Below, piece after piece: positions 1,425-49,957 of a stretch of 64,000 bases of DNA (positions within the stretch are counted from its first letter, which is position 1; the number at the start of each line of letters is the position of its first letter). The DNA is from Thermodesulfovibrionales bacterium. Lineage in GTDB: Bacteria; Nitrospirota; Thermodesulfovibrionia; Thermodesulfovibrionales; SM23-35. Position numbers and translations under genes: made by a program. The stretch spans positions 196 through 64,195 of the forward strand of contig JASEEX010000004.1 in the NCBI GenBank assembly GCA_030019415.1, written 5' to 3'. The notes beneath the pieces are model-generated. The model was given only the letters and a program-made list of their open reading frames with translations, had not been told where the DNA came from and did not search any database.

Positions 1425-1447
1425 GAATAGTTCCTCCCCAAACTCAT

Positions 1448-2524: not shown

Positions 2525-2525
2525 T

Positions 2526-3038: not shown

Positions 3039-3041
3039 AGC

Positions 3042-7582: not shown

Positions 7583-8160
7583 TATTTTACCCTTTCTATA
7601 TATTCCGATGTCCTCGTGTCCACCCTGATGGTGTTTTCCTCGTTTATATGAAAGGGGACTTTAACCACAGCCCCTGTTTCTAATGTTGCTGGCTTGCTAC
7701 TTGCTGATGCTGTATCCCCTCTGAATCCCGCTGGGTCTGTTTTTATAACCAGGAGCTCAACAAAGGTTGGGAGTTCTACACTCAACGGAACCCCTTTATA
7801 GTAGAGGATTCTAACTACCATATTTTCCTTTAGAAATTTCTTTGCCTCGCCGAGCTGGTCAGCAGTAAGTGGAACCTGCTCGTAAGTCTCCTCATCCATG
7901 AAATAATACATACCGTCCTGCATATAGAGGTATTGCATCTTCTTTTCCTCAAGCTCGGGGGCCTCCAATCTTTCACCTGACCTGAAGGTTTCCTCAAGGA
8001 CACTCCCTGTCCTCAGACTCTTCAGTTTTGTCCTGACAACAGCTCCACCCCTCCCCATCTTCACATGCTGAAAGTCTATTATCTCGAAGGGGTCACCTTT
8101 AAATTTTATTTTGAGACCCCTTCTGAAATCACTTGTTGAAACCAAATTAATACCTCTCAC
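7582..8160 (-). CDS. efp: Translation elongation factor P
   Basis: [42 protein letters not shown] is the typical EF-P N-terminus. The exact start codon is uncertain. Confidence 0.9.
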
Positions 8161-8170
8161 GGTCTAAAAA

Positions 8171-8311
8171 GTAAACCCCGTTAGAAAGGACGGGGCTTTT
8201 ACTCCGCCCTTTCTGCAAGGGACGTTGATCATTCGATCTACGTCCCAAGGAATTAAATTTTTGTTTATATCATCCCCGCCATAAATGGCAGGGCTTTCTA
8301 ACGGGGTAAAC
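8171..8311. repeat. Palindromic element with GTAAACCCCGTTAGAAA ends and three internal hairpins
   Basis: gtaaaccccgttagaaag (8171-8188) pairs with ctttctaacggggtaaac (8294-8311), 16 of 18 complementary. Internal stems include gggacgt...acgtccc and ccccgcca...tggcaggg. The same ends occur inside ppx at 44996-45034. Confidence 0.6.
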
Positions 8312-16534: not shown

Positions 16535-16617
16535 AGGTTTAATGGTTTAATGATTTAAGGGTTCAAGGTTTAACAGTCAGTAACTTTTAAACTTTAAACT
16601 ATTCAACTTTCAACCTT
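16535..16617. repeat. GTTTAAAGG/GTTGAAAGTT short-period repeat block (right of the response regulator gene)
   Basis: aggtttaatggtttaatgatttaagggttcaaggtttaac...aactttcaacctt. Its last 15 nt encode the C-terminal ...VES* of the convergent gene. Confidence 0.55.
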
Positions 16618-19161
16618 TATTTTTAGGTGTTCTCTTATGAATTCTTCCATATGTAATTCAGTAGTGGCATCATCATGCATGATTGCATCCAGTTGTTTAG
16701 TGTAGACTGTTAGTCTACCTAAAACTTCTAATTTTTCTTTAAGTTGTGACTTTTTATACTTCGTGATAATAGCATCGATGACGTCTTCTGTAACCTTTAC
16801 ATCAAAATCAATTTTTTTGAGTATCTCACTAATGAGCTTGACCCTTCTCAATCTCCTCTCTCTACTCGCACCACCCCCCTTGAAAAAGAACCTGATGTAA
16901 TTGTCATTTATGTTTTCCCCTGTATATGCCTCGATTACGGAAAGATGATAGCCAAGTCTTATCGAGAAATTCATATATTCCCTGGAGATGAAAGAGAAAC
17001 TCTCCTCCCCTATCCGCTCAAGCTCTACCTCTGGTATTGCGGCAGTTTCTGCAATCATTCCTAAGAATCCTTTGACATCGACGTGCCTCGGCCCCGGCCA
17101 TTCCAGTGAGATAAGACCTTTGAGAAAGGCATTAAAAGATACTGAGCTAATGTATTCAGGGGTAAGTTTTTGGGGAGCACCTTTAATGCCTCCGCCTAAA
17201 TCGATGAGATATACGAGAAGGGGTATGCCTGCTACAAGTCTAATCCTCTCAACATCTTCTGGTAATTCCTCTGAAATCTTGAACATCTCCTGCATTGCCT
17301 TCTGATGGGCAAAGCGCGTTATATCGTGCAGGGTTTCACAGAATTCAGGTTTAAACCGCTCATCCTCAGGATCTACTAAATTCAGGGGAACGATCCACCT
17401 CAGTACTTTTTCGAAAGTTTTGAAGAGCCGCGTGCCCTTAAAAGGCTCTTCCTTTTTTTCTGCAAATTCTTCCAGCTCCTTCACGTGCCCTTCATAGATA
17501 TTGCAATTTATTGCATCTACAGTTATTTCCTGGCCATTTCTCAGAATCACTGTGGCGACCCCGGTATCGAAAATAGTTGGTATCTGGAACTCCCGAGCTA
17601 TCGTTGCTAAATGAACTGTAGTCCCTCCAACATCTGTGATAATTGCGCTTGCCTTGTTCATAACAGTGACATACTTTGTAGAGGTATGTTTTGCCACAAG
17701 CACAGCACCTTCAGGGAAGTTCTCCAGATCCTCCTCTGTCCTGACAATATAAGCCTTCCCAAAGCCTATTCCTTTGCAAACAATTATACCTTTGTCGATC
17801 AGGATGTTGTATCCAGCGACATGAATAGGAACCGGCCTAGTTGGTTCTCTTGTAAGGATCATCAGTGGCCTGGTCTGAAGTATATAAGGCCTGCCATCTT
17901 TATCTATTGCCCATTCAATATCCTGTGGAGATTTATAGTGATTCTCGATAGCGATGGCATACTCAGCAAGGGATTTAATCTGTTCATCACTCAAGCTGGG
18001 TTTTCCCTTTATCTCTTCAGGTAAAGGGACCTCTTCCACCTCCCCATCAGGTCTACATATAAGCATACTTTTTTGCTCCGGGACTGTCCTTTTGATTATC
18101 TCTAATGGATGTATTGACAAAACATATGTTTCAGGGGTTACTACTCCTTCAACTATGTACTTTCCCAGGCCACGGACAACGCTGATAATAAGGGTATCGG
18201 CCTTTGGATTATTGGGATCTCTCGAGTACATTACCCCTGCTGCCTTTGCATCTATCATTACAACGACACCTACAGACATAACCATCTCATATTCATGTAA
18301 CCCTTTTGTCTTGTAATAGAATATGGCCCTGGGAGTAAAGAGGCTTGCTATGACCTCTTTGTATCTCTGGGGGATTAGATCAGGAGGTACGTTAAGGAAG
18401 GTAGAGTATTGTCCTGCAAAACTGAACTCCCCGTCTTCAAGGAGTGCACTGCTCCTTACAGAGACCATAACCTTCTTGCCATATTTATCGTAGAGCCTTG
18501 AGTAGGCATTCCGTATCTCTCTTTCAATATCATATGGAATCTCGGCCTTTATAATCTGTTCCTGAAGCTCACGGCTTTTACTGTTCAGCACATCAAGGTT
18601 GTCAACCGGAAGCTTAAATAATACCTTGTTTATCCTTTCAACTAACTCATTGTGCTCCATGAACCTTTTAAAGGCAAAAGCGCTTATAGCAAAGCCCTCA
18701 GGTGTGGGTATCCTGAGATGATTCCTTACTTCTCCGAGGTTGGCATTTTTATTTCCCAGACTATCTGTCATTTCCCTTGTGATTTCGTCAAAAGGTATAG
18801 TATAGCTGCTGACAGGAATCTCTTTTCTCCTGGCTAGGAACCTTTCTATTTCTGAATAAATCATATTGAATCTATCGTATAGATTGTGGTATTTCTCCTC
18901 TGAGATTTCATTCAGTTTGTCCACAATTTTCCTTACATTCTCACCGATAGCCATGATAGTGTTTATATAGGGTCTGTCGATGAGAAATTCGCCTGATAGC
19001 TTTTCCTCCATATCTGCCATTAGTTCAAGGACAGAATTATTTTGTGATAGCAGTTCATGAAAAGAATGGAATTTTTTAAGTAAAAAGGCTCTGCCACTTT
19101 CTATTTCTTCCCTGGGCGCCGGCTTTCTTAAAATTCCTGAAAGTTGCTTCCAAAGTCTCAT
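16603..19161 (-). CDS. PEP-utilizer-like phosphotransferase, paralogue 1: helical N-domain + PPDK_N-type ATP-grasp + swivel phosphohistidine domain + unassigned ~320-aa C-domain
   Basis: GNKNANLGEV, VSVRSSALLEDGEFSFAGQY, DIEWAIDKDGRPYILQTRP and AIITDVGGTTVHLATIAREFQIPT. The C-terminal part lacks recognisable PEP/pyruvate TIM-barrel motifs. Confidence 0.75.
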   Translation of the reverse strand: MRLWKQLSGILRKPAPREEIESGRAFLLKKFHSFHELLSQNNSVLELMADMEEKLSGEFLIDRPYINTIMAIGENVRKIVDKLNEISEEKYHNLYDRFNMIYSEIERFLARRKEIPVSSYTIPFDEITREMTDSLGNKNANLGEVRNHLRIPTPEGFAISAFAFKRFMEHNELVERINKVLFKLPVDNLDVLNSKSRELQEQIIKAEIPYDIEREIRNAYSRLYDKYGKKVMVSVRSSALLEDGEFSFAGQYSTFLNVPPDLIPQRYKEVIASLFTPRAIFYYKTKGLHEYEMVMSVGVVVMIDAKAAGVMYSRDPNNPKADTLIISVVRGLGKYIVEGVVTPETYVLSIHPLEIIKRTVPEQKSMLICRPDGEVEEVPLPEEIKGKPSLSDEQIKSLAEYAIAIENHYKSPQDIEWAIDKDGRPYILQTRPLMILTREPTRPVPIHVAGYNILIDKGIIVCKGIGFGKAYIVRTEEDLENFPEGAVLVAKHTSTKYVTVMNKASAIITDVGGTTVHLATIAREFQIPTIFDTGVATVILRNGQEITVDAINCNIYEGHVKELEEFAEKKEEPFKGTRLFKTFEKVLRWIVPLNLVDPEDERFKPEFCETLHDITRFAHQKAMQEMFKISEELPEDVERIRLVAGIPLLVYLIDLGGGIKGAPQKLTPEYISSVSFNAFLKGLISLEWPGPRHVDVKGFLGMIAETAAIPEVELERIGEESFSFISREYMNFSIRLGYHLSVIEAYTGENINDNYIRFFFKGGGASRERRLRRVKLISEILKKIDFDVKVTEDVIDAIITKYKKSQLKEKLEVLGRLTVYTKQLDAIMHDDATTELHMEEFIREHLKIKVES

Positions 19162-19228: not shown

Positions 19229-21793
19229 TTATATCTTCCCTTTAATATGCTCTTTGACGAAGTCTTCTATATACATGTCAGTAATGGCATCATTGTACAT
19301 GACCATGTCCAGTTGTTTAGTATAGGCTGTCAGCTTGCCCAACACCTCTAACCGTTTTTCAATCGCAGGTTTCTTATATTTAGTTATACTGGCATCTATG
19401 AGGTCTTCAACCACTTTTACATTGAAGTCCAGCCGTTTGAGTATTTCCGATACCAGTCTAACCCTCCTGAATCTCCTATCCCTTCCGGCCCCTCCACCTT
19501 TAAAGAAAAACCTTAAATAATTGTCATTTATGCTTTCTCCTGCATATGCCTCAACTGTGGAGAGATGATAGCCGAGTCTTATGGAGAAATTCATATATTC
19601 TCTTGTGATAAAGGAGAAACTCCTATCGCCAATTCTGTAGAGTTCTCCCTCAGGGATGGTTGCGGTATGGGCTACCATGCTCATGAAGCCTTTGATATCA
19701 AAAGGTCTCGGTTCAGGCCATTTCATGGAGGTAAGGCCGTTGCAAAAGGCGTTAAACGGAATAGAGTAAATATATTCAGGGGTAAGCTTTTTAGGAGCAC
19801 CTTTAATACCCCCACCTAAATCGATGAGATATACTTCCATGGGGATAGGGGCTACAAGTCTCGGGGAGTCACTAACCTCAACCTCCTGAGAGGGTATCTC
19901 CGTAATTGTGAACATTTCGCGCATTGCCATTTCATGGCAGAAGCGAGTTATATCATGTAAAGTCTCGCAGAATTCGGGTTTGAATCCCACGTCTTCGGGG
20001 TCAACTAAATTCAAGGGTACAACCCATTTTAAAACTCCCTCAAGTGTCTTAAAGAGTTGTGTGCCCTTAAGGGGGTCTTCCTTTATTTCTGCAAATTCTT
20101 CCAGTTCCTTTACATGTCCTTCATAGATATTGCAATTTATTGCATCTACTGTTATCTCCTGTCTATCTTTAAGGATCTCTGTAGCAATTTCTGTATCGAG
20201 AATGGTGGGAACCTGAAATTCCCTGGCCAATGATGCCATATGACCTGCAGTCCCTCCAACATCTGTGATAATTGCGCTTGCCTTGTTCATAACAGTGACA
20301 TACTTTGCAGAGGTGTGTTTTGCCACAAGCACAGCACCTTCAGGGAAGTTCTCCAGATCCTCCTCTGTCCTGACAATATAAGCCTTCCCAAAGCCTATTC
20401 CTTTGCAAGCAATTATACCTTTGTCGATCAGTATGTTGTATCCAGCGACATGAATAGGAACCGGCCTAGTTGGTTCTCTTGTAAGGATCATCAGTGGCCT
20501 GGTCTGAAGTATATAAGGCCTGCCACCTTTATCTATTGCCCATTCAATATCTTGAGGGGACTCATAATGATTTTCGATAGCTATAGCGTATTCAGCGAGA
20601 GTTTTGATCTCTTCTTCACTCAGTGAGGGCTTTCCTTTCATTTCAACAGGTAAAGAGACTTCCTCTATCTCCCCATCAGCTCTACATACAAACATGGCCT
20701 TCTGCTCCGGGATGTTTCTTTCAATTATTTCTAAATTATCTCTTGATAAAACATAGGCTTCCGGGGTTACCACTCCTTCGACCACGCTTTTACCGAGACC
20801 CCGGGCTGCGCTGATGATAAGGGTATCTTCCTTTGGCCTGTTTGGGTCTCTTGAATACATTACCCCCGCTGCCTTTGCATCAATCATTTCAAGGACGCCT
20901 ACAGACATGACCATATCATGTTCATGTAGGCCCTTTGTCTTGTAATAAAATATTGCCCTCGGCGTAAAAAGGCTTGCTATAACCTCTTTGTATCTCTGGA
21001 GGATCAGGTCAGAAGTTACATTAAGAAATGTAGCGTATTGCCCTGCAAAGCTAAACTCCCCATCCTCCTGGAGGGCACTGCTCCTTACAGAGACCATTAC
21101 CTTCTTACCATATTTATCGCAGAGCCTTGAATAGGCATACATTATCTCCCTTTCAAGTTCCTGGTGAATCTCGGCCTTCATGACCAGATCCTGAATCTCG
21201 AAGCTTTTATTATTCAACACTTCAAGGTTGTCTAACCGAAGCTCAAATAGTGTCCTACGTATCCTTTCAAAAATCTTATTGTGCTCCATGAACCTTTTAA
21301 AGGCAAAAGCGCTTATAGCAAAGCCCTCAGGTGTGGGTATCCTGAGATGATTCCTTACTTCTCCGAGGTTGGCATTTTTATTTCCCAAGCTGTCTACAAT
21401 CTCTTTGGTGATTTTATCAAAGGGTATGGTATAACTGCTGAGAGGGATCTCCCTCCTTCTGGTTAGAAGTTTCTCTATGTTTGAAACAACGCCAAGGAAT
21501 CTTTCATGCAAGGCGAAAAATTTATTGTTTGAGATTTCATTCAGTCTATCTATAATGATTTTGACTCCTTCGGCAATTTCCGAGATTTTCTGGTTTATGT
21601 AGTGCCTGTCAAAGAAAAACTCTCCTGATAGCTTTTCCTCCATATCTGCCATTAGTTCAAGGACGGTATTGTTGTTTGAAAGTAATTCCTGGTAAAGCTG
21701 GTATCTCTTTTTGAGGAGCTCCCTTTTGTCCTCTTTCTGTTCCTTAACTGTTGTGTTTTTTTTCTTCCCCAAGAATTTCGGAAGGTATTTCAT
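19229..21793 (-). CDS. PEP-utilizer-like phosphotransferase, paralogue 2 (same architecture)
   Basis: Colinear with 16603-19161 at a constant offset of 2629 nt. The swivel motif is GGTAGHMASLAREFQVPT. The conserved C-terminal block is REYMNFSIRLGYHLS..EAY.GE.INDNY.RFFFKGGGA. Confidence 0.75.
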   Translation of the reverse strand: MKYLPKFLGKKKNTTVKEQKEDKRELLKKRYQLYQELLSNNNTVLELMADMEEKLSGEFFFDRHYINQKISEIAEGVKIIIDRLNEISNNKFFALHERFLGVVSNIEKLLTRRREIPLSSYTIPFDKITKEIVDSLGNKNANLGEVRNHLRIPTPEGFAISAFAFKRFMEHNKIFERIRRTLFELRLDNLEVLNNKSFEIQDLVMKAEIHQELEREIMYAYSRLCDKYGKKVMVSVRSSALQEDGEFSFAGQYATFLNVTSDLILQRYKEVIASLFTPRAIFYYKTKGLHEHDMVMSVGVLEMIDAKAAGVMYSRDPNRPKEDTLIISAARGLGKSVVEGVVTPEAYVLSRDNLEIIERNIPEQKAMFVCRADGEIEEVSLPVEMKGKPSLSEEEIKTLAEYAIAIENHYESPQDIEWAIDKGGRPYILQTRPLMILTREPTRPVPIHVAGYNILIDKGIIACKGIGFGKAYIVRTEEDLENFPEGAVLVAKHTSAKYVTVMNKASAIITDVGGTAGHMASLAREFQVPTILDTEIATEILKDRQEITVDAINCNIYEGHVKELEEFAEIKEDPLKGTQLFKTLEGVLKWVVPLNLVDPEDVGFKPEFCETLHDITRFCHEMAMREMFTITEIPSQEVEVSDSPRLVAPIPMEVYLIDLGGGIKGAPKKLTPEYIYSIPFNAFCNGLTSMKWPEPRPFDIKGFMSMVAHTATIPEGELYRIGDRSFSFITREYMNFSIRLGYHLSTVEAYAGESINDNYLRFFFKGGGAGRDRRFRRVRLVSEILKRLDFNVKVVEDLIDASITKYKKPAIEKRLEVLGKLTAYTKQLDMVMYNDAITDMYIEDFVKEHIKGKI

Positions 21794-38730: not shown

Positions 38731-39164
38731 TTGGAGATTATGGAGACATATATGTCAACTAATACATTGCAGGCAAAGCAGCCTTTACTAAGAAGTGACT
38801 TTTATTCTCCCTCTGAAATAATCGAGTTATTTAAAGCTAAAAAGGTTGAAAAAGACTGGTCTTTTATTGAATATAAGCCTAGTGATACTTCAAAACTTAC
38901 CCATTGTTATCATCGTTATCCAGCCAAATTTATCCCGCAACTAGTTGAAAAACTTATGGATGAGTATCTCATTGGCATCAGAGAACCTCATGTAAATGAC
39001 CTTTTTATGGGAAGCGGAACAACCATTGTATGCGCTATAACAAGGGGATATAAAGCAAGTGGGACGGATATTAATTATATTTCCGAGTTAATTACAAGAG
39101 TCAAATGTACTCCCATTAACCCTCTTTTACTCAAAGAGAGAATAGGTATACTACTTTCAGACTG
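38731..39164 (+). pseudogene. DNA methyltransferase N-terminal fragment, truncated by the IS256-family element
   Basis: YHRYPAKFIPQLV and the SAM motif LFMGSGTT are present, but no (D/N)PPY catalytic motif follows. The reading frame runs into the IS end at ~39165. Confidence 0.65.
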
Positions 39165-40539
39165 GTATTGTCAAGTTTTTTCTGTAAATTCTCTCAGGGC
39201 CTTTATCCTCAATGGTTTTCATGGCTTCTAATTAAGCTGCAACCTTCTCAAGTTTTGATGCCCTTATCTTTGCAAGGATCGCCTTCGCCTCATCTGTCAT
39301 ATCCACCCCATGCCATCTGAGTTCCTTTATCTGCCAGTAGACCATCGTCAGCGCCCTCTCCTCATCCTTAAACCTCCCAATCCCTCTTACCCTTCCTCTC
39401 ACCTCCCTGAAGCTCCTCTCCACCGCATTGGTCGTCCGTATACGCCTCCAATGCCGGTAAGGATACTTGTAATATGTCAAACACGCCTCTATGTCCTCCA
39501 TCAAACACTCTGATGCTGATGGATACTTCCTATCCCACTCCCTCTTAAATAGCTCTATTGCCTCTTTAGCATGCTCGTATGTGGAGGCATAGAATATCTT
39601 CCTCAATGACCCCTTTACTGCATCTCTGTCTTCCTTGAGTACCTTGTTAAGAATATTCTCCGTCCTGTGTTTTGTACATCTCTGAATGTCTGAGTCGGGG
39701 AATAGCTCCTGCACTGCCCTTATGAGTCCAGGACAGCCATCTATCACTATGAGTAACGGATCATTAAGTCCTCTCTTTACCATATCTTCCAAGAACCCCC
39801 TCCACGCACTGTACGATTCCTGGTTGCCAAGGCTTACGCTTATAAGCTCAGCCCTGCCATCTTCCAAAAACGCCCTCGCCACTAATACTGCCTCCTTCTG
39901 TCTTGTCCCTGCCCTCACGCCAAGCCTTATCCCATCAAGGATTAGATAGATTACTTTAAGTTCAGATAAATCCCTCTTCTTCCATCCCCTGAATTCATCA
40001 ACTATCCTCTCAGTAAGCCTTATTACATTCTGATGGCTGAACCCCTTATCCTTAAGGAGCTTCCTTATGGAACCCTTCACCTTCCTCGTAGAGACCCCAT
40101 TCATATAAAGCAAAGGCACTACCTCCCTTATCTCCTCCATCTGTCTTACATAGGGAGGAAGTATCTTTGAATGAAAGGGCCTCTCTAAACCCCTTACCTG
40201 TGGCATCGCAACCTCTATCTCCCCACACCCTATATTAACAGCCCTTGTCTTTGATCCATTGCGAGTGCCATGCTGCCCGCTACGCTCATAATAGTCCCTT
40301 TGCAGTAGCATGCATAGCTCCTCCTCTATCGCTACCTGTAATGCCATCCGAGCTCCTATCCTCGTTATCTCTATCAGCGGATGCCTCCCGCTGAGCTCCT
40401 CTAAATGCTCCTCGATGACTTTCTTCGACTTCTTTGATATACTTTCCATGGGTATAATTCTCCTTTCTTTTTTAAAGTCTTTACAAACCATTGAGAATTA
40501 TACCCTATTTGGAATTTACAGAACATATGTTACAATATC
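39165..40539 (-). mobile_element. IS256-family insertion sequence (~1.37 kb)
   Basis: The imperfect terminal inverted repeats are ggtattgtcaagttttttctgtaaattc (39164-39191) and the reverse complement of ggaatttacagaacatatgttacaatatc (40511-40539). No direct target duplication is seen. Confidence 0.8.
39232..40449 (-). CDS. IS256-family (Mutator-type) transposase
   Basis: RDYYERS....TRNG..TR........I.V..PQVRG and the later DG..GL / CT.H ... Y.YP...W..IRTTN..E motifs. The ATG at 40449 is preceded by AAAGGAG. Confidence 0.85.
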   Translation of the reverse strand: MESISKKSKKVIEEHLEELSGRHPLIEITRIGARMALQVAIEEELCMLLQRDYYERSGQHGTRNGSKTRAVNIGCGEIEVAMPQVRGLERPFHSKILPPYVRQMEEIREVVPLLYMNGVSTRKVKGSIRKLLKDKGFSHQNVIRLTERIVDEFRGWKKRDLSELKVIYLILDGIRLGVRAGTRQKEAVLVARAFLEDGRAELISVSLGNQESYSAWRGFLEDMVKRGLNDPLLIVIDGCPGLIRAVQELFPDSDIQRCTKHRTENILNKVLKEDRDAVKGSLRKIFYASTYEHAKEAIELFKREWDRKYPSASECLMEDIEACLTYYKYPYRHWRRIRTTNAVERSFREVRGRVRGIGRFKDEERALTMVYWQIKELRWHGVDMTDEAKAILAKIRASKLEKVAA

Positions 40540-40716
40540 AAAAAACTCTCTTTATCAAAGAAAATAATTTGTAAACAATGGATGCATTTCTGTTAACAAC
40601 CAATATAATGTATAATTCTGTCTAAAAAAGAGTGAGTCTTACTCGATGATTACAACATCTAACCTTGTTTCTTGATATCAAGTCCGTACTCTGTTAACCT
40701 GCCATGACATAAAATC

Positions 40717-41990: not shown

Positions 41991-42074
41991 GCTTAATAGC
42001 CTCCAAATACATACCTTACTGGCATCTCAAGGACTATGATGATAAAGACCAGACAGGTTATGACCATTTAACCC

Positions 42075-42428
42075 TTAAAGCCCGAGGGCGTCGATTATCC
42101 TTTTTCTCTGTTTTTCGATTACCTTCTGTCCGTGTTCAAGGGTCTCTACAATCTCCTTTTTGGCACTTTCTGAGAGCCCCTTGCCACGATCTATTACATC
42201 TGTCGCCTTATCCTTCACATCACTCACAAACTCATTGACACTTTCGATTATATCCTCAGCTAAATCGACAGTGCCCTTTTTTATCCGTCTTGCTGTCTTT
42301 GAAATATCCTCTCTCGTCTCACGTCCTGATTTAGGTGCATAGAGAAGAGCGATAGCTGCACCGATCAGCCCTCCTAACAGAAATGCCCCCATAATCTTTG
42401 TAGCATCTTTGTTCATAGTATCCTCCAT
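42075..42428 (-). CDS. YtxH-domain protein
   Basis: The TM helix GAFLLGGLIGAAIALLYAPKSGRETRE is followed by a charged helical region. Confidence 0.75.
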   Translation of the reverse strand: MEDTMNKDATKIMGAFLLGGLIGAAIALLYAPKSGRETREDISKTARRIKKGTVDLAEDIIESVNEFVSDVKDKATDVIDRGKGLSESAKKEIVETLEHGQKVIEKQRKRIIDALGL

Positions 42429-42517
42429 TAAAAAATTTTCTTAGATTAATATAAATGAATCACAGAGTCAACTTTCCATGGTAGACATTTTAACCTGCCT
42501 CGGCTATCATTTAAGTA

Positions 42518-43633
42518 GTGAACACCGCATTATTTTACGGTTCATGGAAAATAATCACAATATGGGGAATACCTATCAGGGTTCATTTTTCATGGCTTAT
42601 TGTTTTCGGTTTGATAACATGGTCTTTATCCATCTATTATTTTCCCAAGGCAGCCCCTGAACTGCCAGCAGCATCTTACTGGACTAAGGGTGCTATCGGA
42701 GCGCTCCTTCTATTTGCCTCTGTTGTATTTCACGAACTTGCACATTCCTTTGTATCTAAGAAATACAAAATATCCATAATCGGTATTACACTCTTTATCT
42801 TTGGTGGTGTTGCACAGATGAAGGGTGAGCCTCCAACCCCGAAGGCAGAATTCAGGATAGCGATTGCGGGACCACTTTCGAGTTTCTTTCTATCAGGGGT
42901 CTTTTTCTTATCCTATACTGCTGCTGACAGTCCTGGGATAAAGGCCCTCTATGCATATCTCTCACAGATTAATCTCATTCTCGGTGTCTTCAATCTCATC
43001 CCTGGTTTTCCTATGGATGGTGGAAGGGTATTGAGGTCAATAATATGGGAAAAAACAAAAGATTACTTTCACGCCACGAGGAAGGCCTCCGGTCTTGGAC
43101 AGAAAATAGCTCTTTTCTTTATCATTTTCGGTTTATTCTCTATCCTCACAGGCCTTCCGGGAGGATTATGGCTTATGTTCATAGGCTGGTTTCTTTATAC
43201 AGCAGCTCAGGCAAGCTATCAGCAGGCAAGTCTTCAGGAGAACCTTTCTGGCTTAAAGGTCAAGGATGTAATGGTAAGAGATATCGTAACCCTCAGTTCA
43301 TCGGTTACTATTGATGAGGCTGTAAATGGTTATTTTCTTAAATATGGCTATGGAGGGTTCCCTGTCTTCGGGGATGGAAGATTCCTCGGCATCATAACCC
43401 TTAAAGAGGTTAAAAATGTTCCAAAGGAAGATTGGATAAAGGTAAATGTATCCGATGTCTTGGTCTCACACAGCAAAGAGTGGGAGGTGTCACCCGAAGA
43501 TGATGTTATGAAGGCCCTGGAACTGATGATCACCAAAGATAAGGGAAGGCTTGCGGTGATAAAGGATGATAAAATTATAGGTTTAATCACGAGAAATGGG
43601 ATTGCAAGATATATACAGATTATGGGAAGATGA
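42518..43633 (+). CDS. Site-2 protease family (M50) metalloprotease with C-terminal CBS pair
   Basis: HELAHSFVSKKY (HExxH), NLIPGFPMDGGRVLR, then two CBS repeats. GTG start. Confidence 0.85.
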   Translation: MNTALFYGSWKIITIWGIPIRVHFSWLIVFGLITWSLSIYYFPKAAPELPAASYWTKGAIGALLLFASVVFHELAHSFVSKKYKISIIGITLFIFGGVAQMKGEPPTPKAEFRIAIAGPLSSFFLSGVFFLSYTAADSPGIKALYAYLSQINLILGVFNLIPGFPMDGGRVLRSIIWEKTKDYFHATRKASGLGQKIALFFIIFGLFSILTGLPGGLWLMFIGWFLYTAAQASYQQASLQENLSGLKVKDVMVRDIVTLSSSVTIDEAVNGYFLKYGYGGFPVFGDGRFLGIITLKEVKNVPKEDWIKVNVSDVLVSHSKEWEVSPEDDVMKALELMITKDKGRLAVIKDDKIIGLITRNGIARYIQIMGR

Positions 43634-43641
43634 TGGAGAAG

Positions 43642-43679
43642 AAAAAATCAGGGATGGGTATACCCATCCCTGATTTTTT
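43642..43679. terminator. Bidirectional rho-independent terminator
   Basis: aaaaaatcagggatgggta / tacccatccctgatttttt is a perfect stem flanked by A- and T-runs, lying between convergent genes. Confidence 0.75.
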
Positions 43680-43723
43680 ACATAGCCTACTTTGCTGACT
43701 TCTCTGCGGGTGTAGGTGCTTTC

Positions 43724-43915
43724 TCAGGGTGCTGGAGGAGCAGGTGGTGCCTCAGCCGGTTTCTCCGGTACGGCAGGCCCTGGTGCCTCAGCCGGTTTTT
43801 CCGGTACGGCAGGCCCTGGTGCCTCAGCCGGTTTTTCAACCTTCTTACAGCCAATGCTGAGTGAGAATGATACAAGCAGCAACAGGGACAAAAGTATTAC
43901 TAAAAACCTCTTCAT
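43724..43915 (-). CDS. Small Pro/Ala-rich lipoprotein
   Basis: Signal peptide with the lipobox LSIGC, then repeats EKPAEAPGPAVP; 63 aa. Confidence 0.6.
   Translation of the reverse strand: MKRFLVILLSLLLLVSFSLSIGCKKVEKPAEAPGPAVPEKPAEAPGPAVPEKPAEAPPAPPAP
43746..43843. repeat. 36-bp tandem repeat, ~2.7 copies (inside the lipoprotein ORF)
   Basis: ggtgcctcagccggttt(c/t)tccggtacggcaggccct repeats at 43746, 43782 and 43818 (the last copy is partial). Confidence 0.8.
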
Positions 43916-44039
43916 TAACTGTCACCTCCTTTCATGAGGGATTTCCAAAAATCTTAAGTCAACATTATAACACAAGAGATTGGTCAATTTTATAACTGAA
44001 CATTTAGAAAAATCAAGATATTTCTTAAAGAGAATACCC

Positions 44040-44333
44040 AATAACCAAACTACAATAACCAAATAATAACCAATAACTCAATCACCAATAACCCAAATCC
44101 AGCGATAAATTTGTCGTAATGAAGCGATAATGTCATGGTGAGCCAGTCGAACCATGACATCAGTGTCACCCTTCGACACGCTCAGGGTGACACAATAGCA
44201 ATGGTTTGCACGTTTATCGCTGGATTTGGGAATAACCAAACAAGTTTTGACCCCGAAGAAAGAATCTTAGAATTTATCTTTGTTTGATTATTGATTATTG
44301 GAGTTTATTTGGTGTTTGATTATTGGTTATTGG
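44040..44333. repeat. Nested palindromic element: AATAACCAA-type outer arms, inner 18-bp inverted repeat, two core hairpins
   Basis: The outer arms are imperfect. cccaaatccagcgataaa (44092-44109) pairs with tttatcgctggatttggg (44213-44230). The core hairpins are gtcatggt...accatgac and gtgtcaccc...gggtgacac. Confidence 0.6.
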
Positions 44334-44389
44334 TAATCTGGAGATAGAGAGCACTTGACAAAAGTTCGTCATAGGGGCTCTTATAATAT

Positions 44390-45391
44390 ATGCCCCTTTC
44401 CGCCGCTATAGACATAGGATCTAACACAATCAGACTTCTCATAGGTAACGTTAGAGATAACAAGATTGAGCATGTATTTTATGAAAGGAAGATAACGCGT
44501 TTGGCCGAAGGGATCAGCCAGTCCAAGATACTCAAGGATGAACATATTGAAGCCTCAATAGCGGTACTGAAGGAATTCTCTTCAATTATTCAAAGACAAG
44601 GGGTTAAGGCCATAAGGGCAGTTGCTACAAGCGCTTTAAGAGAAACATACAACTCAGAGATATTTATAAGAAAAGTATTTGCTGATACAGGTATTTCTAT
44701 AGAGGTTATATCAGGTGAAAAAGAGGCAGAGCTTATACTTAAGGGTATTCTTTCATCCTTTCCTGACTTATCCTTTCCTGACTCATCACTCATTATTGAT
44801 ATAGGAGGGGGAAGTACAGAGTGGATATTCTGTAAAGGCAGATATCCCATTGACATGGGAAGCCTCCCTATCGGGGTTGTAAAACTTCATGAGAATTTTA
44901 TCAAGACCGATCCTATCTCAGAGGCAAATATCTCGGAATTGAGCAGGGAGATCCTCACATTTTTAGAAATCCTTAAAAAAAGGATTGGACATCAGGTAAA
45001 CCCCGTTAGAAAATCATTTTCTAACGGGGTAAACAGGAAGACATGCTTTATAGGAACAGCAGGAACCTTTACAACCCTTGCTTCTATTGACTTAAAACTC
45101 AAGACCTATTCGAGGGAAAAAATACATCTCCATGGAATACCTCTGAGCAGACTCCGTGATATGAGTAGAAGATTGTTGGCCCTCCCACTGAGGGAAAGAA
45201 AGAAGGTGGCGGGACTTGAACCTGAGAGGGCAGACTTGATTATACCTGGCATACAATTTACAATTAACGCAATGGAATTTTTTAAGTTTGATGAATTAAT
45301 GGTAAGCGATTATGGTCTCCTTGAGGGAGTGCTCCTCGATACCCTGGAGGAGAGGAATGAAAAAAATATTCAAGAGACCCATAAGCCTTAA
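44390..45391 (+). CDS. Ppx/GppA-family phosphatase
   Basis: AAIDIGSNTIRLLI, ATSA.RE..N and IDIGGGSTE are the typical ASKHA-fold Ppx/GppA motifs. Confidence 0.85.
   Translation: MPLSAAIDIGSNTIRLLIGNVRDNKIEHVFYERKITRLAEGISQSKILKDEHIEASIAVLKEFSSIIQRQGVKAIRAVATSALRETYNSEIFIRKVFADTGISIEVISGEKEAELILKGILSSFPDLSFPDSSLIIDIGGGSTEWIFCKGRYPIDMGSLPIGVVKLHENFIKTDPISEANISELSREILTFLEILKKRIGHQVNPVRKSFSNGVNRKTCFIGTAGTFTTLASIDLKLKTYSREKIHLHGIPLSRLRDMSRRLLALPLRERKKVAGLEPERADLIIPGIQFTINAMEFFKFDELMVSDYGLLEGVLLDTLEERNEKNIQETHKP
44996..45034. repeat. 39-bp palindrome inserted in frame in ppx
   Basis: gtaaaccccgttagaaaatcattttctaacggggtaaac starts on a codon boundary and encodes VNPVRKSFSNGVN. Its ends are identical to those of 8171-8311. 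Confidence 0.75.
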
Positions 45392-46127
45392 ACAGGTGCC
45401 TTTCAGATTCTGTCCAGGTTGCGGACACAGCCTTATACATAGGTTGATTGCTGAGTGTATTGATAATTTAGGCATCAGGGAAAGGGTAGTAGGCATTGCT
45501 CCCGTAGGATGTGCTGTATTTGCCTACGACTATTTTAATTTTGACATACTCGAAGCCCCACATGGCAGACCTCCTGCTACAGCAACTGGACTAAAACGTG
45601 CTATGCCCGACAGGATAATATTTACTTATCAGGGTGACGGAGACCTTGCTGCGATAGGCACAGCCGAGATAATTCATGCTGCTAACAGGGGGGAGAACAT
45701 CTCGGTATTTTTTGTCAACAATGCAACATATGGTATGACAGGTGGCCAAATGGCACCCACTACACTTCCTGGCCAGAAGACAACCACAACACCTTCAGGA
45801 AGAAATACAAAAACTGCTGGTTTTCCCCTGCGTGTCTCAGAGCTCTTGTCCACAATTGAAGGAGCTTCCTATATTGTAAGAACCTCAGTAGATTCTTACA
45901 AAAATCTGATAAATACAAAAAGGGCAATAGAAAAGTCCTTCAGATATCAGATTGAAGAGAGAGGGTTTAGCCTTGTCGAGATACTCTCACCATGTCCAGT
46001 AGATTGGGGATTCACTCCTAAAGATTCAATAATATGGCTTCGAAAGGAGATGATGTCAGTATATCCTCTTGGAACATTGAAGGATAAATTCAAGGGAAAG
46101 AATAAATGGAAAAAGGAATTATTATAG
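45357..46127 (+). CDS. korB: 2-oxoacid:ferredoxin oxidoreductase, beta (TPP-binding) subunit
   Basis: FCPGCGH, GDGD..AIG and N..YGMTGGQ motifs. The start is at MKKIFKRP (45357) after GGAGGAGAGG; the track start 45312 is less likely. Confidence 0.85.
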   Translation: MKKIFKRPISLKQVPFRFCPGCGHSLIHRLIAECIDNLGIRERVVGIAPVGCAVFAYDYFNFDILEAPHGRPPATATGLKRAMPDRIIFTYQGDGDLAAIGTAEIIHAANRGENISVFFVNNATYGMTGGQMAPTTLPGQKTTTTPSGRNTKTAGFPLRVSELLSTIEGASYIVRTSVDSYKNLINTKRAIEKSFRYQIEERGFSLVEILSPCPVDWGFTPKDSIIWLRKEMMSVYPLGTLKDKFKGKNKWKKELL

Positions 46128-46672
46128 CTGGCTTCGGGGGCCAAGGCATACTTTTTTTAGGGAGAATCCTTGCATATGCTGGAATGCTCGAAAACAGAGA
46201 AGTGACATGGTTCCCATCTTATGGGGGAGAAATGAGGGGAGGGACTGCAAACTGCACAGTAATCATCTCGGATGAGTTGATAGCTTCCCCAATTGTTAGG
46301 AACCCTGACATACTCATTGTAATGAATGATGAATCACTTCGGAAATTCCTACCACGGCTCAGACAAAAGGGAGTCCTCATACTCGATTCATCTCTTGTCA
46401 AAAACCCGGCGCTGCGGACTGATATAGAAGTTGTTAGAGTTCCAGCAACAGAGATCTCTAATACCATTGGTAATACAAAATCTGCCAATATGGTATTGCT
46501 TGGCGCATTTATTGCTAAAACAAATCTCCTCAAGAAGGAATCAACTTTTGAGGCCCTTGAGAATTCAATGGGCCAAAGAAAAAAAGGCATCGAAATTAAC
46601 AAAAAGGCCATCATGGAGGGTATAAGATTCTTTGAAATCCAAATTTCAAAATCTAAATGTCAAAATATTTGA
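46106..46672 (+). CDS. 2-oxoacid:ferredoxin oxidoreductase, gamma subunit
   Basis: IIIAGFGGQGILFLGRILA.A......EVTWFPSYGGEMRGGTANCTVIIS. The C-terminal ...EIQISKSKCQNI* is encoded by a repeat block. Confidence 0.85.
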   Translation: MEKGIIIAGFGGQGILFLGRILAYAGMLENREVTWFPSYGGEMRGGTANCTVIISDELIASPIVRNPDILIVMNDESLRKFLPRLRQKGVLILDSSLVKNPALRTDIEVVRVPATEISNTIGNTKSANMVLLGAFIAKTNLLKKESTFEALENSMGQRKKGIEINKKAIMEGIRFFEIQISKSKCQNI

Positions 46673-46700
46673 CACTTGAGCTTTGTCATTTGAATTTTTT
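46631..46700. repeat. TTTGAAA/AAATTTCAAA-type short-period repeat block
   Basis: tttgaaatccaaatttcaaaatctaaatgtcaaaatatttgacacttgagctttgtcatttgaatttttt is in inverted orientation relative to 47255-47286. Confidence 0.5.
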
Positions 46701-47295
46701 ATTTAGGTTTTTTAAATACATCTTCCGGGTTAAGCTGTATCTTAATATATGCCTTTTTCCTGAGTTCATTAACATGCATCTTGAGAAGCTGATTAAGTTC
46801 ATCCTCAGCGAAATAGTTTTCGATCTCTTCTCTTACGGCCTCAAATTCCCTACCTTGAAAATCCCCGATGTGCCTTTGATAAAAATCTACCAGTTCTTCC
46901 TCCTTTATCTTTATAAAAGGCCTTATCTTAAGGTCAATATATTCCTTAAGCAGTTCATCCTCAGAGGGTGCCTCCAATCTGATCTTTTTAGCCTCTCTGA
47001 GAAGAAGGATCCTGTTGACCATTGTATTCAAGACCTCCTCTTTTGTAATACCCGGTGTTATCTTCTGCGAGTTCGTATATGCTTCCTCTAATTCACTGAG
47101 GGTTATTGCGGTGTTATCTACAAATGCAACCACACGGTCTTTTATTTCAGCAGAGAGCAATGGGCAGAAAACAAAGAGTAGTAAAAAAGTAATGAGTGAT
47201 GAGTAATGAGTGATGAGTAAAAAAGATTTAGAAAGTATTTTTTGTTTATTTAACTTTGAAATTTGAAATTTGAAATTTGAAATTTTAAAAAGCAT
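46699..47295 (-). CDS. SurA-N-terminal-domain periplasmic chaperone-like protein (no PPIase domain)
   Basis: DRVVAFVDNTAITLSELEE is the SurA/PpiD N-domain signature, preceded by a signal-like LITFLLLFVFCPLLSA. The only canonical start (ATG 47295) lies inside the bamA 3' end. Confidence 0.6.
   Translation of the reverse strand: MLFKISNFKFQISKLNKQKILSKSFLLITHYSSLITFLLLFVFCPLLSAEIKDRVVAFVDNTAITLSELEEAYTNSQKITPGITKEEVLNTMVNRILLLREAKKIRLEAPSEDELLKEYIDLKIRPFIKIKEEELVDFYQRHIGDFQGREFEAVREEIENYFAEDELNQLLKMHVNELRKKAYIKIQLNPEDVFKKPK
47189..47220. repeat. 14-bp tandem repeat x2.3 within the surA-like 5' region
   Basis: gtaatgagtgatga gtaatgagtgatga gtaa. Confidence 0.7.
47255..47286. repeat. Heptanucleotide tandem repeat TTTGAAA x4.5 at codons 4-13 of the surA-like ORF
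   Basis: tttgaaa repeats at 47255, 47262, 47269 and 47276, followed by a partial copy. Confidence 0.8.
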
Positions 47296-49957
47296 GCCCG
47301 ATACTAAAATGTATCTCTCCCCTGCTCTCTCCTAACTCCCTCTGGAGCTTACGACCATAATCGATCCTTATGGGACCAACAGGGGTGTTATACCTGAAAC
47401 CGAGTCCTGCAGTATATTTGAGATTCCCGGGATCTATATCTTTTGCCTTCAGCCAGACATTACCTCCATCGATGAAGGCAACGATTCCTATACCTTTACT
47501 GAGATAGGACCTTAACTCAATGTTACCGAGGAGAAAGGCATTACCTCCAGTTGGAGTCCCGTCTACTCCTTTAGGACCGAGTGTATCCTGCTCATAGCCC
47601 CTAACGGTCGTTCTGCCCCCAAGAAAAAATCTCTCGACAATCGGCAGTTCCTCGGTCTTATGGTACCCCTGGGCAACGCCTCCTCTTAGTGATAAAGCGA
47701 GGACAAAACGTTTATCTACCTGATGGTAGGTACTACCATGAAATAAAAGCTTTACAAAATTTGTCTCAGACAGAAATGCAGGCGAAGTAAATTTAAGAGA
47801 TATCCCTGAAAGGACTCCTTTCTTCGGGTCAAAGGGATTGTCCCTCGTATCGTAAACAATCCCGGGTCTTAGACCGCTTATGGTCAGGGTTCCTGTGTCT
47901 TCTCTACTCAGGATGACATCGGGTTTAACATCGAATGTTTCAACGAGGGAGAAATCATAGTATAACTCTGCCTTAAGGGTATCACTCAATCTTTTCTCCA
48001 GACCTGCCGTGGCACCATACCTCGTCAATCTGTATCTCGTTTCCCTGGTATCGATATTGATCTCCTTTCTGTCTTCACGAAGCAAAAATGCCCTGAATGA
48101 CAATTCTTTACTCAGAAACCAGGGCTCATGATATTGTAATATGTATCGTTTCTCGAGAGAACTCAGCTCAAGCCGTAATGAAGCCTGTCTGTTCATACCC
48201 CAGAGATTCCGATAACTCAAATCTAAAAATCCCCTGAATCTCTCGTAATCACCGTATCCTACGCCGACCTCTACTGCGCCAGCGTTTCCCTCATTCAGTC
48301 TTATCAGGACATCCCTTTCGTGGTTATATCTGTCGAGTACTTCCATATCAACACCCGTAAATAGACCTAACTTATAGAGCCTCCGTCTCTCTTTACCGAG
48401 GATACCCCAGTCAAAGGGCATCCCTTCATGGTGCTTCAACTCCCTCTTTACTACCTCATACCTTGTTCTATAATTTCCTGTAACTATGGTCTTACCAAAA
48501 AAGATTAAATCGCCTTCGTTTATTTGAAAGGTTATGGATGCCTTCTGCCCCTCAAAATTTCTTTCTATTGAGACTATAACGTCCGAAAGGCCATGGGTGT
48601 TGCACAACTCTATAATCCTGTAGCGCGCATCCAAAATATCAACCTCATTGTATGGATCACCAGGTTTTATCCTGACAGCCTTTCTTACCTCCTCCTCAGC
48701 GACGAGAGCTATCCCGACAATCTCCACCTTCTCAATCTCAGTCTTCAAACCTTCATGTATTCTGATAAGGATATCTATCTCCTTAGAACTATCTTCATAT
48801 CTTGTCTGAAACTCTTCGACACCGGCCTCCAGGTATCCGAGGGCATTATAAAACCCTTTGATTGCCTCCCTGTCTGTATCTATGAGGTCGGGATTATAAA
48901 GACCTCCCTCTTTAAGAGACATGACCTCTTTAAGGTTCTTTTCAGGAAGGCTAACCCCGTTGAAATAGATTTCCCTGATCTTTACCTTTGCTCCTTCAAA
49001 TATAAAGAAATTGAGACCTATGAGATCATCCTTCGATGTTATAACAGGTGCTATCTGTGCAAAGGGATATCCCTTTTTATGATAGATAGAAAGCATCCTG
49101 TAGACTGCCTCTTCAACAATATCATCTCTGAAGTCCTCGGCCTCAAAAAAAGGCATTTCTTTAAGAAGGGTCCTTGTGGAAATGGCACTATTGCCTTCTA
49201 TAGAGATTATCAGATGCTTACCGGGATTAACAGGTACATTGAGTGTTCCATCAGCAAATGTATAGGGACCTACAACGGGTCTAAAATATCCTTTATCTTT
49301 ATAGTATGTCTTTATCTTCTCAAGGTCTTTTTTCAATTTCACCTGATCATATATATCTCCCTCGGATAAGCTCATCATCTTTTCTATCTCTTCTGCTACT
49401 TCAGAGACTATGATTTTTTTTATTCTTTCCGGTTCACCTGTATTAACCTGGAGATGTATATTTATCCTGTACGGTTTTTTTAACCTTTCAATCTTTACAT
49501 TGATGTCGGCATGTGGGAATCCTCGCTTTGCTATCTCATGCCTCAGCTCCTCGATAGCGGCCTCGATCATATCATATCTCATGACCTGCCCTTCTCTGAG
49601 AGGAAAGTTCCTCTTTATGATTCTTCTGGAAAGGCCATAATCTCCATCTATATAAATCTTTTCTATAAAATCCCTCTCTCTTACGTTGATAATCACCTTT
49701 TCCCCATCGGTTGTTTCAATAGAGATGTCCTCGAAAATCCCTTTCAAACATGCCCTTTTTATACCCTGCCTTACTCCTCTACTATCAATTGGCTTATCAG
49801 GCCTGATGTCGAGGAGGTCAAGAAGTTCTTTCTTTTCAATAGAGTAGAGCCCGTTGATTTCTATTTCACCGACTATTGCGCCTGAAACCTCAGAGAGTGG
49901 GAAATAAGAAATTAAAAATAGAAAAAGAAATAAGATGTTTCTCATTTCCCATTTCAT
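47285..49957 (-). CDS. bamA: Outer membrane protein assembly factor BamA (POTRA repeats + beta-barrel)
   Basis: 890 aa with a signal peptide and repeated POTRA-like segments. The C-terminal barrel carries RGY, GGN.. and the terminal ...FSIGHAF. Confidence 0.9.
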   Translation of the reverse strand: MKWEMRNILFLFLFLISYFPLSEVSGAIVGEIEINGLYSIEKKELLDLLDIRPDKPIDSRGVRQGIKRACLKGIFEDISIETTDGEKVIINVRERDFIEKIYIDGDYGLSRRIIKRNFPLREGQVMRYDMIEAAIEELRHEIAKRGFPHADINVKIERLKKPYRINIHLQVNTGEPERIKKIIVSEVAEEIEKMMSLSEGDIYDQVKLKKDLEKIKTYYKDKGYFRPVVGPYTFADGTLNVPVNPGKHLIISIEGNSAISTRTLLKEMPFFEAEDFRDDIVEEAVYRMLSIYHKKGYPFAQIAPVITSKDDLIGLNFFIFEGAKVKIREIYFNGVSLPEKNLKEVMSLKEGGLYNPDLIDTDREAIKGFYNALGYLEAGVEEFQTRYEDSSKEIDILIRIHEGLKTEIEKVEIVGIALVAEEEVRKAVRIKPGDPYNEVDILDARYRIIELCNTHGLSDVIVSIERNFEGQKASITFQINEGDLIFFGKTIVTGNYRTRYEVVKRELKHHEGMPFDWGILGKERRRLYKLGLFTGVDMEVLDRYNHERDVLIRLNEGNAGAVEVGVGYGDYERFRGFLDLSYRNLWGMNRQASLRLELSSLEKRYILQYHEPWFLSKELSFRAFLLREDRKEINIDTRETRYRLTRYGATAGLEKRLSDTLKAELYYDFSLVETFDVKPDVILSREDTGTLTISGLRPGIVYDTRDNPFDPKKGVLSGISLKFTSPAFLSETNFVKLLFHGSTYHQVDKRFVLALSLRGGVAQGYHKTEELPIVERFFLGGRTTVRGYEQDTLGPKGVDGTPTGGNAFLLGNIELRSYLSKGIGIVAFIDGGNVWLKAKDIDPGNLKYTAGLGFRYNTPVGPIRIDYGRKLQRELGESRGEIHFSIGHAF

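Follow-up and report, generated by a model that had tools for sequence, protein, structure and literature searches.

An in-frame 29-bp hairpin in a Ppx/GppA phosphatase gene of a Thermodesulfovibrionales bacterium and the dispersed family of short palindromic elements to which it belongs

Results

A 64,000-nt stretch of DNA from a Thermodesulfovibrionales bacterium (assembly GCA_030019415.1, contig JASEEX010000004.1, positions 196 to 64,195), which we call the window, contains an open reading frame (ORF) of 333 amino acids (44390..45391, plus strand) that carries a short palindrome, and here we describe this palindrome and the family of dispersed hairpin elements to which it belongs. The ORF encodes a Ppx/GppA phosphatase. 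It matched Pfam family PF02541 (E = 3e-57) and the Aquifex PPX/GPPA structures 1T6C and 2J4R in the PDB (E of about 1e-46), the PF02541 domain and the motifs of the ASKHA (actin-like ATPase) fold are intact, and an AlphaFold model (see below) is in line with this assignment. An identical protein is on record in a metagenome-assembled genome (MAG) of the Thermodesulfovibrionales, phylum Nitrospirota. The segment 44996-45034 reads GTAAACCCCGTTAGAAAATCATTTTCTAACGGGGTAAAC, i.e. GTAAAC CCCGTTAGAAAATCATTTTCTAACGGG GTAAAC, and encodes VNPVRKSFSNGVN in the frame of the gene, which confirms the original prediction that a palindrome resides in frame in a Ppx/GppA gene. The palindrome proper is 29 bp long (45001..45029, plus strand) and consists of two 14-bp arms, CCCCGTTAGAAA(AT) and (AT)TTTCTAACGGGG, around a central C. 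To its left lies a TAAA (44997..45000), preceded by G at 44996, and to its right a second TAAA (45030..45033), with C at 45034 after it; the GTAAAC blocks at the two ends form direct and not inverted repeats. On folding, the core forms a 14-bp stem with a 3-nt loop, and folding energies of -23 kcal/mol (z = -8.3) for RNA and -14.8 kcal/mol (z = -9.2) for DNA were obtained.

For comparison, we used the sister genome MAG GCA_040753955.1, which encodes the closest relative of the ppx product (protein P0002, locus L001). Here, we found an empty site, CATCAG-GTAAAC-AGGAAG, with a single GTAAAC and with flanks that were 100% identical over about 130 aligned bases. Relative to this site the window has gained 33 bp, namely the 29-bp core plus a second TAAA, which corresponds to 11 amino acids; the 39 bp and 13 residues originally taken for the insertion were an overestimate. 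The 11 residues were missing in all 20 aligned homologues (60-90% identity), which read GHQ-VN-RKT where the window protein reads GHQ-VNPVRKSFSNGVN-RKT, and the alignment with Aquifex PPX has an 11-residue gap at the same position, so that the segment proved to be lineage-specific. Run SRR23186780, assembled independently in Logan, has the insertion too (contig L002). Comparison of window positions 42000-48000 with the sister locus revealed a mosaic identity of 77% to 100% per 100 bp; around the insertion, ppx matches the sister sequence at 100%, and the proteins overall share about 87-90% identity. This pattern suggests recent recombination between the two lineages.

The gene stays open since 33 is a multiple of three and since the element is free of stop codons in three of its six frames, which encode xNPVR..SNGVx, YPVR..SNGVY or FTPLE..FLTGFT. 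In the AlphaFold model of the Ppx protein (mean predicted local distance difference test score, pLDDT, 88.1; predicted template modelling score 0.87), the insert lies in a coil (residues 204-218) between a helix (178-203) and a strand (219-223), and pLDDT fell below 50 at residues 207-211. It can be seen that the insert occupies a low-confidence coil of an otherwise confident model, directly N-terminal to the conserved GTAGT strand. The model is consistent with a tolerated surface loop that may be disordered.

When we searched the window for the 17-mer GTAAACCCCGTTAGAAA and its partner, four matches were found (0.11 expected), and these define exactly two loci, 44996-45034 and 8171-8311. The latter contains a 131-bp copy (8176..8306, plus strand) with the same 12-bp arms and a structured interior, which sits between the minus-strand genes pepP (8373-9455) and efp (7582-8160). 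It is flanked by TAAA on the left (8172..8175) and on the right (8307..8310). The corresponding sister locus (L251) lacks the copy and reads ATTG-TTTA-CTTTTTAGAC, with a single TTTA, the reverse complement of TAAA, where the window on the gene strand reads TTTA-core-TTTA. The earlier statement that both loci share their ends was correct, but these are not 17-bp ends: they are composed of a 12-13-bp inverted repeat and a target-derived (G)TAAA. Since the sister genome has both empty sites, both window copies are recent insertions at GTAAAC that occurred after divergence of the lineages, each with a 4-bp duplication. Inside the 131-bp copy, a 26-bp mini-hairpin of a second family, GGACGTTGAT..ATCTACGTCC, is nested at 8220..8245 (plus strand); it is bordered by CAAG at 8216-8219 and 8246-8249, which gives a net insertion of 30 bp. 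As to the neighbouring gene, many EF-P relatives (P0122, P0124-P0128, P0133, P0209 and others) have annotated N-terminal extensions (193-230 versus 187 amino acids), and these extensions could be artefacts of gene calling, caused by upstream elements with an open frame.

A different explanation is that nothing has moved and that the ppx feature is a native functional part of Ppx, a selected regulatory or terminator RNA hairpin, or an assembly artefact. In favour of this, the hairpin is very stable as RNA, and in the family described below about 12% of the TAAA-flanked copies coincide exactly with the stop codon at the end of an upstream ORF. However, the clean empty sites of the sister genome at both loci already refute this explanation to a large extent, the segment is missing in all homologues, two independent assemblies agree, and hundreds of copies occur in unrelated contexts with 4-bp duplications. 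Moreover, no Rfam family matched the window or 16 loci at gathering thresholds, and the 131-bp copy gave only chance-level matches at E <= 10. We consider an immobile feature hardly credible.

To define the extent of the family, we scanned a genome collection (one genome per species) with the 17-mer, for which we estimate about 70 chance matches in the whole collection. Among the matches listed, more than 119 loci in many phyla were found, and the partner arm was present within 400 nt in 117 of 127 matches. According to record titles, the carriers belong to the Omnitrophota, Desulfobacterota/Thermodesulfobacteriota, Nitrospirota, Planctomycetota, Elusimicrobiota, Pseudomonadota and, within the Patescibacteria, to Jorgensenbacteria, Kazan, Gribaldobacteria and Saccharibacteria. 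Examples of genomes rich in copies are CP113000.1 (ORM2a), CAWGWZ01, MGQQ01 and JBEKWN01. A second scan of metagenomes used the arm pair CCCCGTTAGAAA-N(0-30)-TTTCTAACGGGG and was therefore not biased by the flanks; among the matches listed it gave at least 120 further loci, from which 124 copies were taken as the unbiased set. Both scans together yielded more than 270 copies, and length and frame statistics refer to 276 of them. The motif is thus not unique to the window, and the view that a dispersed palindromic repeat has here entered a coding region, in the form of a minimal copy, is supported both by the empty sites and by this multi-locus family. The arms CCCCGTTAGAAA/TTTCTAACGGGG define a large family in uncultivated bacteria of at least seven phyla.

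The family cores are between 24 and about 300 bp long, with peaks at 29 and 53 bp and further classes at 40, 95 and 131 bp. Their interiors measure from 0 to about 290-300 nt and have little in common from one sublineage to the next. Deletion derivatives were seen, such as a 40-bp form derived from a 95-bp form between two CAGCGGGGCATTA repeats, and so were nested copies. The 53-bp class, with its fixed length and unrelated interiors, was also considered as CRISPR-like, but its arms are inverted, its copies are dispersed and duplications are present. Twelve base pairs of the arms are identical, whereas the 13th stem position varies and yet is complementary in 176 of 218 copies; at the 14th position complementarity is near chance. 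In the unbiased set, the bases flanking the stem are complementary in 97 of 124 copies. Variant arms (TCCC..GGGA, GATA..TATC, GAAG..CTTC) carry compensatory changes and have intact duplications. [quoted passage not shown]

An exact 4-bp direct repeat flanked 80 of the 124 unbiased copies (0.5 expected), while a 5-bp repeat was seen in one copy only. The 80 repeats follow the pattern Y-N-N-R (TAAA 43, TTCA 6, TGAA 5, CAAG 4, others), and their outer bases are complementary in 71. Such repeats, with a single copy of the tetranucleotide at both empty sites, are what a classical MITE mobilized by a DDE transposase would leave behind: cuts staggered by 4 bp are introduced into the target and repair creates the duplication. 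A partly palindromic target with complementary outer bases is also typical of transposase complexes with two-fold symmetry. The best match among such elements is IS1380, a family with 'CC' ends, direct repeats of 4-5 bp and a transposase related to piggyBac (ISfinder table). The hairpin elements begin with CCCC and agree with both features. In the case of piggyBac, the flanking four nucleotides (TTAA) are carried as a 5' overhang on the excised ends, which would favour matching targets, and a carry-over of this kind could explain the inheritance of flanks reported below. In addition, CCCCGT-TAGAAAG seems to resemble the piggyBac end (CCC-TAGAAAG). Several observations do not fit a DDE mechanism. 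The target TAAA is asymmetric and far more frequent than TTAA and TATA (43 : 2 : 1). It is preceded by G in 35 of 43 cases without a matching C on the 3' side (9 of 43), where the base is random, and the 13th stem pair covaries. Furthermore, we saw no DDE gene enclosed by such ends in the fetched loci, although no search was aimed at IS1380-type transposases.

A further argument comes from the flanks themselves. When related copies at different loci of the unbiased set were compared, the tetranucleotide was shared in the same orientation by 68 pairs and in the opposite one by a single pair. In 41 of 42 copies of the TTCCAGCGGGGCATTA sublineage, TAAA points the same way with respect to the asymmetric interior, and a CCTCC sublineage carries TTCA as its flank. 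The main sublineage has kept the right-hand TAAA in 17 of 18 copies and the left-hand one in 14 of 18; one-sided TAAA, as read from the copy listing, is found on the right in 17 cases and on the left in seven. Copies of one sublineage inherit their tetranucleotide flank in a fixed orientation, and a plain DDE transposon would leave no such pattern; all in all, we regard a DDE-type MITE as possible but tend to doubt it. Two simpler explanations of the flanks were discarded. Targeting of stop codons as the cause of TAAA and of the fixed orientation accounts for only the 12% of copies mentioned above, and for an internal guide sequence that specifies the tetranucleotide, inspection gave no relation of the flank to the loop or to the 13th pair.

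Identity of core between element and target, a fixed orientation and inheritance of the core in sublineages are all expected from site-specific recombination, in which a circle with the junction TTTCTAACGGGG-TAAA-CCCCGTTAGAAA would act as a lox/dif-like site and a tyrosine recombinase would join it to chromosomal sites that share the core; the preference for G beside the core would also suit this mechanism. On the other hand, units as short as the minimal 28-33 bp are unable to close into double-stranded circles, and a core of 4 bp is shorter than the usual 6-8 bp. No circle junction was detected in the fetched loci or in viral contigs, and no recombinase gene was linked to the copies. Integron attC sites have the order RYYYAAC...GTTRRRY, extrahelical bases and an arrangement in cassette arrays. 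Here the core sites stand in inverted order (GTTAGAA ... TTCTAAC) on perfect stems, and each copy is a dispersed singleton outside arrays, so that the copies were not classified as attC sites. Site-specific recombination is, in our view, improbable.

The arms of the mini-hairpin nested in the 131-bp copy are the terminal inverted repeats of a unit of about 1059 bp with a Y1 transposase gene that was found at other loci. The gene was identified at locus L064, which derives from an element-rich Desulfobacterota MAG genome and encodes a 328-amino acid Y1_Tnp + DnaA_C-like protein (JGI name: 'REP element-mobilizing transposase RayT'). Metagenomes hold very large numbers of relatives of this protein: all 8000 scored candidates had E <= 1e-10, and many of the 120 best matches were located on contigs of 1-3 kb, as expected for a multi-copy insertion sequence (IS). 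The gene lies within the unit between the inverted repeats GGGGACGTTGATGAAA/TTTCATCAACGTCCCC, and the 8-kb locus carries a 185-bp deletion derivative (1695-1879), a full copy (3131-4189) and a degenerate remnant (6391-6695). The unit was also found in L253-L255 and L258, and partial copies in L256-L257. Tyrosine-transposase genes between inverted repeats with GGGG at their start have been described, together with derived repeat families, as TIRtrons/TIRYTs (PMC3733652), and the nested second family has such GGGG ends.

By analogy, the ppx element may have been mobilized in the manner of repetitive extragenic palindromic (REP) sequences or TIRtrons. A Y1 HUH transposase (RAYT/TIRYT, IS200/IS605 superfamily) would bind the single-stranded hairpin, cut at flanking tetranucleotides and insert 3' of a match; the right TAAA would then belong to the element and the left one to the target. 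Stem covariation, the strand- and orientation-specific flanks and the more frequent retention of the right flank argue for such a mechanism, as does the dominance of one specific tetranucleotide, which recalls the TTAC-type targets of IS608. The Y1 protein is abundant in the same kinds of organisms, where its unit has given rise to 185-bp and 26-bp derivatives, and the ends of the hairpin family and of the Y1 unit share CGTT-N-GAAA. Against this mechanism, the full-length Y1 units of our loci lack 4-nt direct repeats, and known Y1 elements lack a target duplication. The Y1 genes we found have different ends (GGGGACGTTGATGAAA); none was flanked by CCCCGTTAGAAA, and only one of about 260 loci contained a Y1 gene. 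Minimal copies with loops of 3-5 nt are too small for a guide sequence that specifies varied tetranucleotides, and the 5' tag is GTAAA and not GT[AG]G. A search for Y1 relatives with CCCCGTTAGAAA-type ends gave one unrelated viral locus, and viral matches to the second hairpin family were uninformative. For mobilization by a Y1 enzyme the probability approaches, without reaching, an even chance.

When we analyzed the behaviour of the family inside genes, the net length (core + 4) of the 276 copies was a multiple of three in 147, with remainders of 1 and 2 in 48 and 81 copies, respectively. Among copies of 3n net length, 47 of 147 lie inside ORFs of at least 150 amino acids, versus 4 of 129 for the others. 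About 17% of the 276 copies are intragenic and nearly all of these are in frame. From the translated sequences, the host genes look like those of IF-2, PheS, a CDC48-like ATPase, HolB, MurB, a NuoN-like subunit, an RnfB-like protein and prepilin leaders. PheS and the CDC48-like ATPase were compared with PDB structures: the ATPase alignment has gaps at the element, and in PheS (L250, position 5700) about 49 query residues (160-208), the element included, are without counterpart. Only about 18 of these residues come from the hairpin element, which may thus have a second insertion as its neighbour. Insertions recur at the codon triplet G-F-T (GGN TTT ACN) in prepilin-leader-like sequences of Planctomycetota and Omnitrophota (L027, L036, L046, L048, L100, L173, L178, L188, L189 and others), where the leader is extended by 11-30 residues. 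The mature pilin may stay unchanged because the duplication would recreate GFT. To survive in frame within genes is a trait of the family in general.

The loci fetched for the search for enzymes and partners comprise 1.74 Mb. Arm pairs 0.35-7 kb apart, which were considered as autonomous copies, turned out to be neighbouring separate elements, orphan arms of the fetched loci shared no common interior, and no protein family recurred near the copies in these loci apart from common housekeeping families and prepilins. In three Desulfobacterota loci (L042 at 476-4625, L028 and L085), genes of the HEPN + nucleotidyltransferase type (HEPN/MNT toxin-antitoxin type) lie between or beside long element copies. 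Viral contigs contained six matches to the 17-mer, which were chance or terminator-like, and three short hairpins with family arms, one with a CTCA repeat and one terminator-like. The plasmid database gave only chance-level matches (E of about 0.4) for the 131-bp copy and none for a 104-bp copy of another sublineage.

Other features of the window can be summarized as follows. Just upstream of ppx, at 44083-44235, there is a second, unrelated MITE-like insertion that is absent from the sister genome; it measures about 170 bp, lies within a AATAACCAA-rich tract and has two internal hairpins and 18-bp perfect inverted repeats, CCCAAATCCAGCGATAAA / TTTATCGCTGGATTTGGG, at 44097-44114 and 44206-44223. 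The repeat-rich stretch 43574-43940 has indels relative to the sister genome and contains a small ORF (43724-43915, minus strand) that encodes three tandem PAEAPGPAVPEK-like units. An IS256-family element (Transposase_mut, PF00872) extends from 39163 to 40540, with its ORF at 39232-40491 on the minus strand and 29-nt imperfect inverted repeats at 39163-39191 and 40512-40540. Adjacent paralogous genes of PEP-utilising (PPDK_N) enzymes are found at 16603-19161 and 19229-21793, and two adjacent ORFs at 255-968 and 1448-2611 match phosphofructokinase.

Discussion

The ppx feature very probably goes back to the recent insertion of a mobile hairpin, a minimal and non-autonomous element of MITE/REP-like type from a family that is moved in trans. 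The mobile unit is the 29-bp perfect hairpin with its 12-13-bp terminal inverted repeats, CCCCGTTAGAAA(N). It entered at G-TAAA-C, which left TAAA on both sides and a net gain of 33 bp, and the 11 extra residues (NPVRKSFSNGV or an equivalent register) are predicted to form a disordered loop that precedes the GTAGT strand. A longer family member, at 8176-8306, was inserted likewise between pepP and efp. A trans-acting enzyme would recognize the conserved stem and join the element to a 4-nt site YNNR, preferably (G)TAAA. Several points weigh against this interpretation. In the 1.74 Mb of fetched loci we found neither an autonomous element nor an enzyme with such ends, and the sole transposase of the window, that of the IS256 family, has ends unrelated to the hairpin family. 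The exact 4-bp duplication fits a DDE enzyme, but the fixed orientation to the asymmetric TAAA and the stem covariation do not; we know of no Y1/HUH elements that make a target duplication. The cross-phylum assignments come from MAG binning and record titles, and retention of the insert in mRNA and protein is what we infer from the frame statistics.

As to the enzyme that moves the family, we tentatively place first a Y1/HUH transposase acting on a single-strand hairpin (RAYT/TIRYT-like), second a DDE transposase (IS1380/piggyBac-like, with 4-bp staggered cuts) and third, as rather unlikely, a tyrosine recombinase or other enzyme. The chances are evenly balanced that the flanking tetranucleotide travels with the element and must base-pair with the target, in the manner of a sticky end or of a crossover core; such behaviour would account for the inherited, oriented flanks. 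A more far-reaching proposal is that mobility needs nothing but a bare hairpin of 24-30 nt with its own target-pairing 4-nt joining sequence, so that target choice (TAAA, TTCA, CAAG and other sublineages) would be heritable and evolvable, that a Y1/HUH or prokaryotic piggyBac-like enzyme would act on it, and that the family would serve as a cross-phylum generator of peptide loops in essential proteins and prepilin leaders. The idea of a general generator of peptide-loop insertions derives from the commonest net lengths (33, 57, 99 and 135 bp), which are multiples of three. We consider this proposal as a whole rather unlikely.

The original prediction compared the ppx element with the Rickettsia palindromic elements (RPEs). 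As described by Ogata (2002) and by Claverie & Ogata (2003), both cited in PMC3733652, RPEs are dispersed short palindromes that reside in frame in functional housekeeping genes and are translated as extra surface peptides. The likeness lies in the dispersal of short palindromic repeats and in their in-frame position in housekeeping-type genes, and this tolerance holds for the hairpin family, whose in-frame insertions in functional ORFs would also be translated. Membership in RPE-1 to RPE-8 is not supported, and the family is rather an analogue in other phyla. Its sequence appears to be different, its hosts are Nitrospirota and other free-living anaerobes of at least seven phyla and not Rickettsia, its minimal unit is 29 bp versus about 100-150 bp, and it has a clear 4-bp duplication, unlike RPEs; this distinction is drawn from the descriptions of RPEs and not from computed sequence similarity.

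The REP/REPIN-RAYT and TIR-TIRYT systems (Di Nocera 2013, PMC3733652) also resemble the hairpin family. They are small GC-ended hairpins that are mostly intergenic, sometimes intragenic in frame, and probably mobilised in trans by a scarce or single-copy enzyme, and their stem is adjoined by a tetranucleotide; TIRtron ends have GGGG at their start, as in the second family nested at 8220-8245. The hairpin family differs in that (G)TAAA stands on both sides as a direct repeat created at insertion, in that its arms are identical across phyla whereas REPs are species-specific, and in that no cognate Y1 gene was found for it. The GT[AG]G tag of an imperfect palindrome that marks REPs is absent, the tag here being (G)TAAA, duplicated 3'. 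Elements of the IS200/IS605 type and their miniature derivatives (PATEs) share hairpin ends, a tetranucleotide-specific target and orientation-specific insertion with the family. They have separate left and right hairpins, ends without inverted-repeat pairing and no duplication, unlike the present elements, in which insertion is likewise oriented at a fixed tetranucleotide but a duplication is present and minimal copies are single hairpins. With bacterial MITEs (Correia/NEMIS, RUP, Nezha, ERIC, Coxiella QMITEs; PMC10969869) the family has in common inverted repeats and a duplication, interiors that vary and do not code, deletion derivatives, nesting of insertions and, occasionally, insertion in frame; it is distinguished by arms of only 12-13 bp, bare-hairpin minimal copies, an inherited, oriented duplication, cross-phylum spread and a strong excess of 3n lengths. 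With IS1380/piggyBac it shares CC(C) ends and a 4-bp duplication (TTAA or 4-5 bp). In no paper searched did we find the 12-mers or the subfamily strings. Because the defining features of REPs, IS200/IS605 derivatives, attC sites and RPEs were lacking and because there was no match in Rfam, the literature or the plasmid database, we conclude that this is a previously undescribed MITE/REP-like family that behaves like RPEs.

Protein-coding palindromic insertions were once presented as a peculiarity of Rickettsia. The present family extends coding palindromes on a large scale to uncultivated anaerobes of at least seven phyla and to apparent core genes (IF-2, PheS, HolB, MurB, CDC48-like ATPase, Ppx). 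It offers a sequence tag with which horizontal exchange can be traced among lineages of groundwater and sediment, and a natural experiment on protein loops that tolerate 11-19 extra residues; for annotation and alignment, it can cause artefacts such as N-terminal extensions and spurious indels. With its combination of stem covariation, exact 4-bp duplications and inherited, oriented flanks, no characterised transposition chemistry fits cleanly. We give a substantial, though less than even, chance to the joining chemistry itself being new, and since the fit to known chemistry is not clean, identification of the enzyme could reveal a new HUH or piggyBac-like variant.

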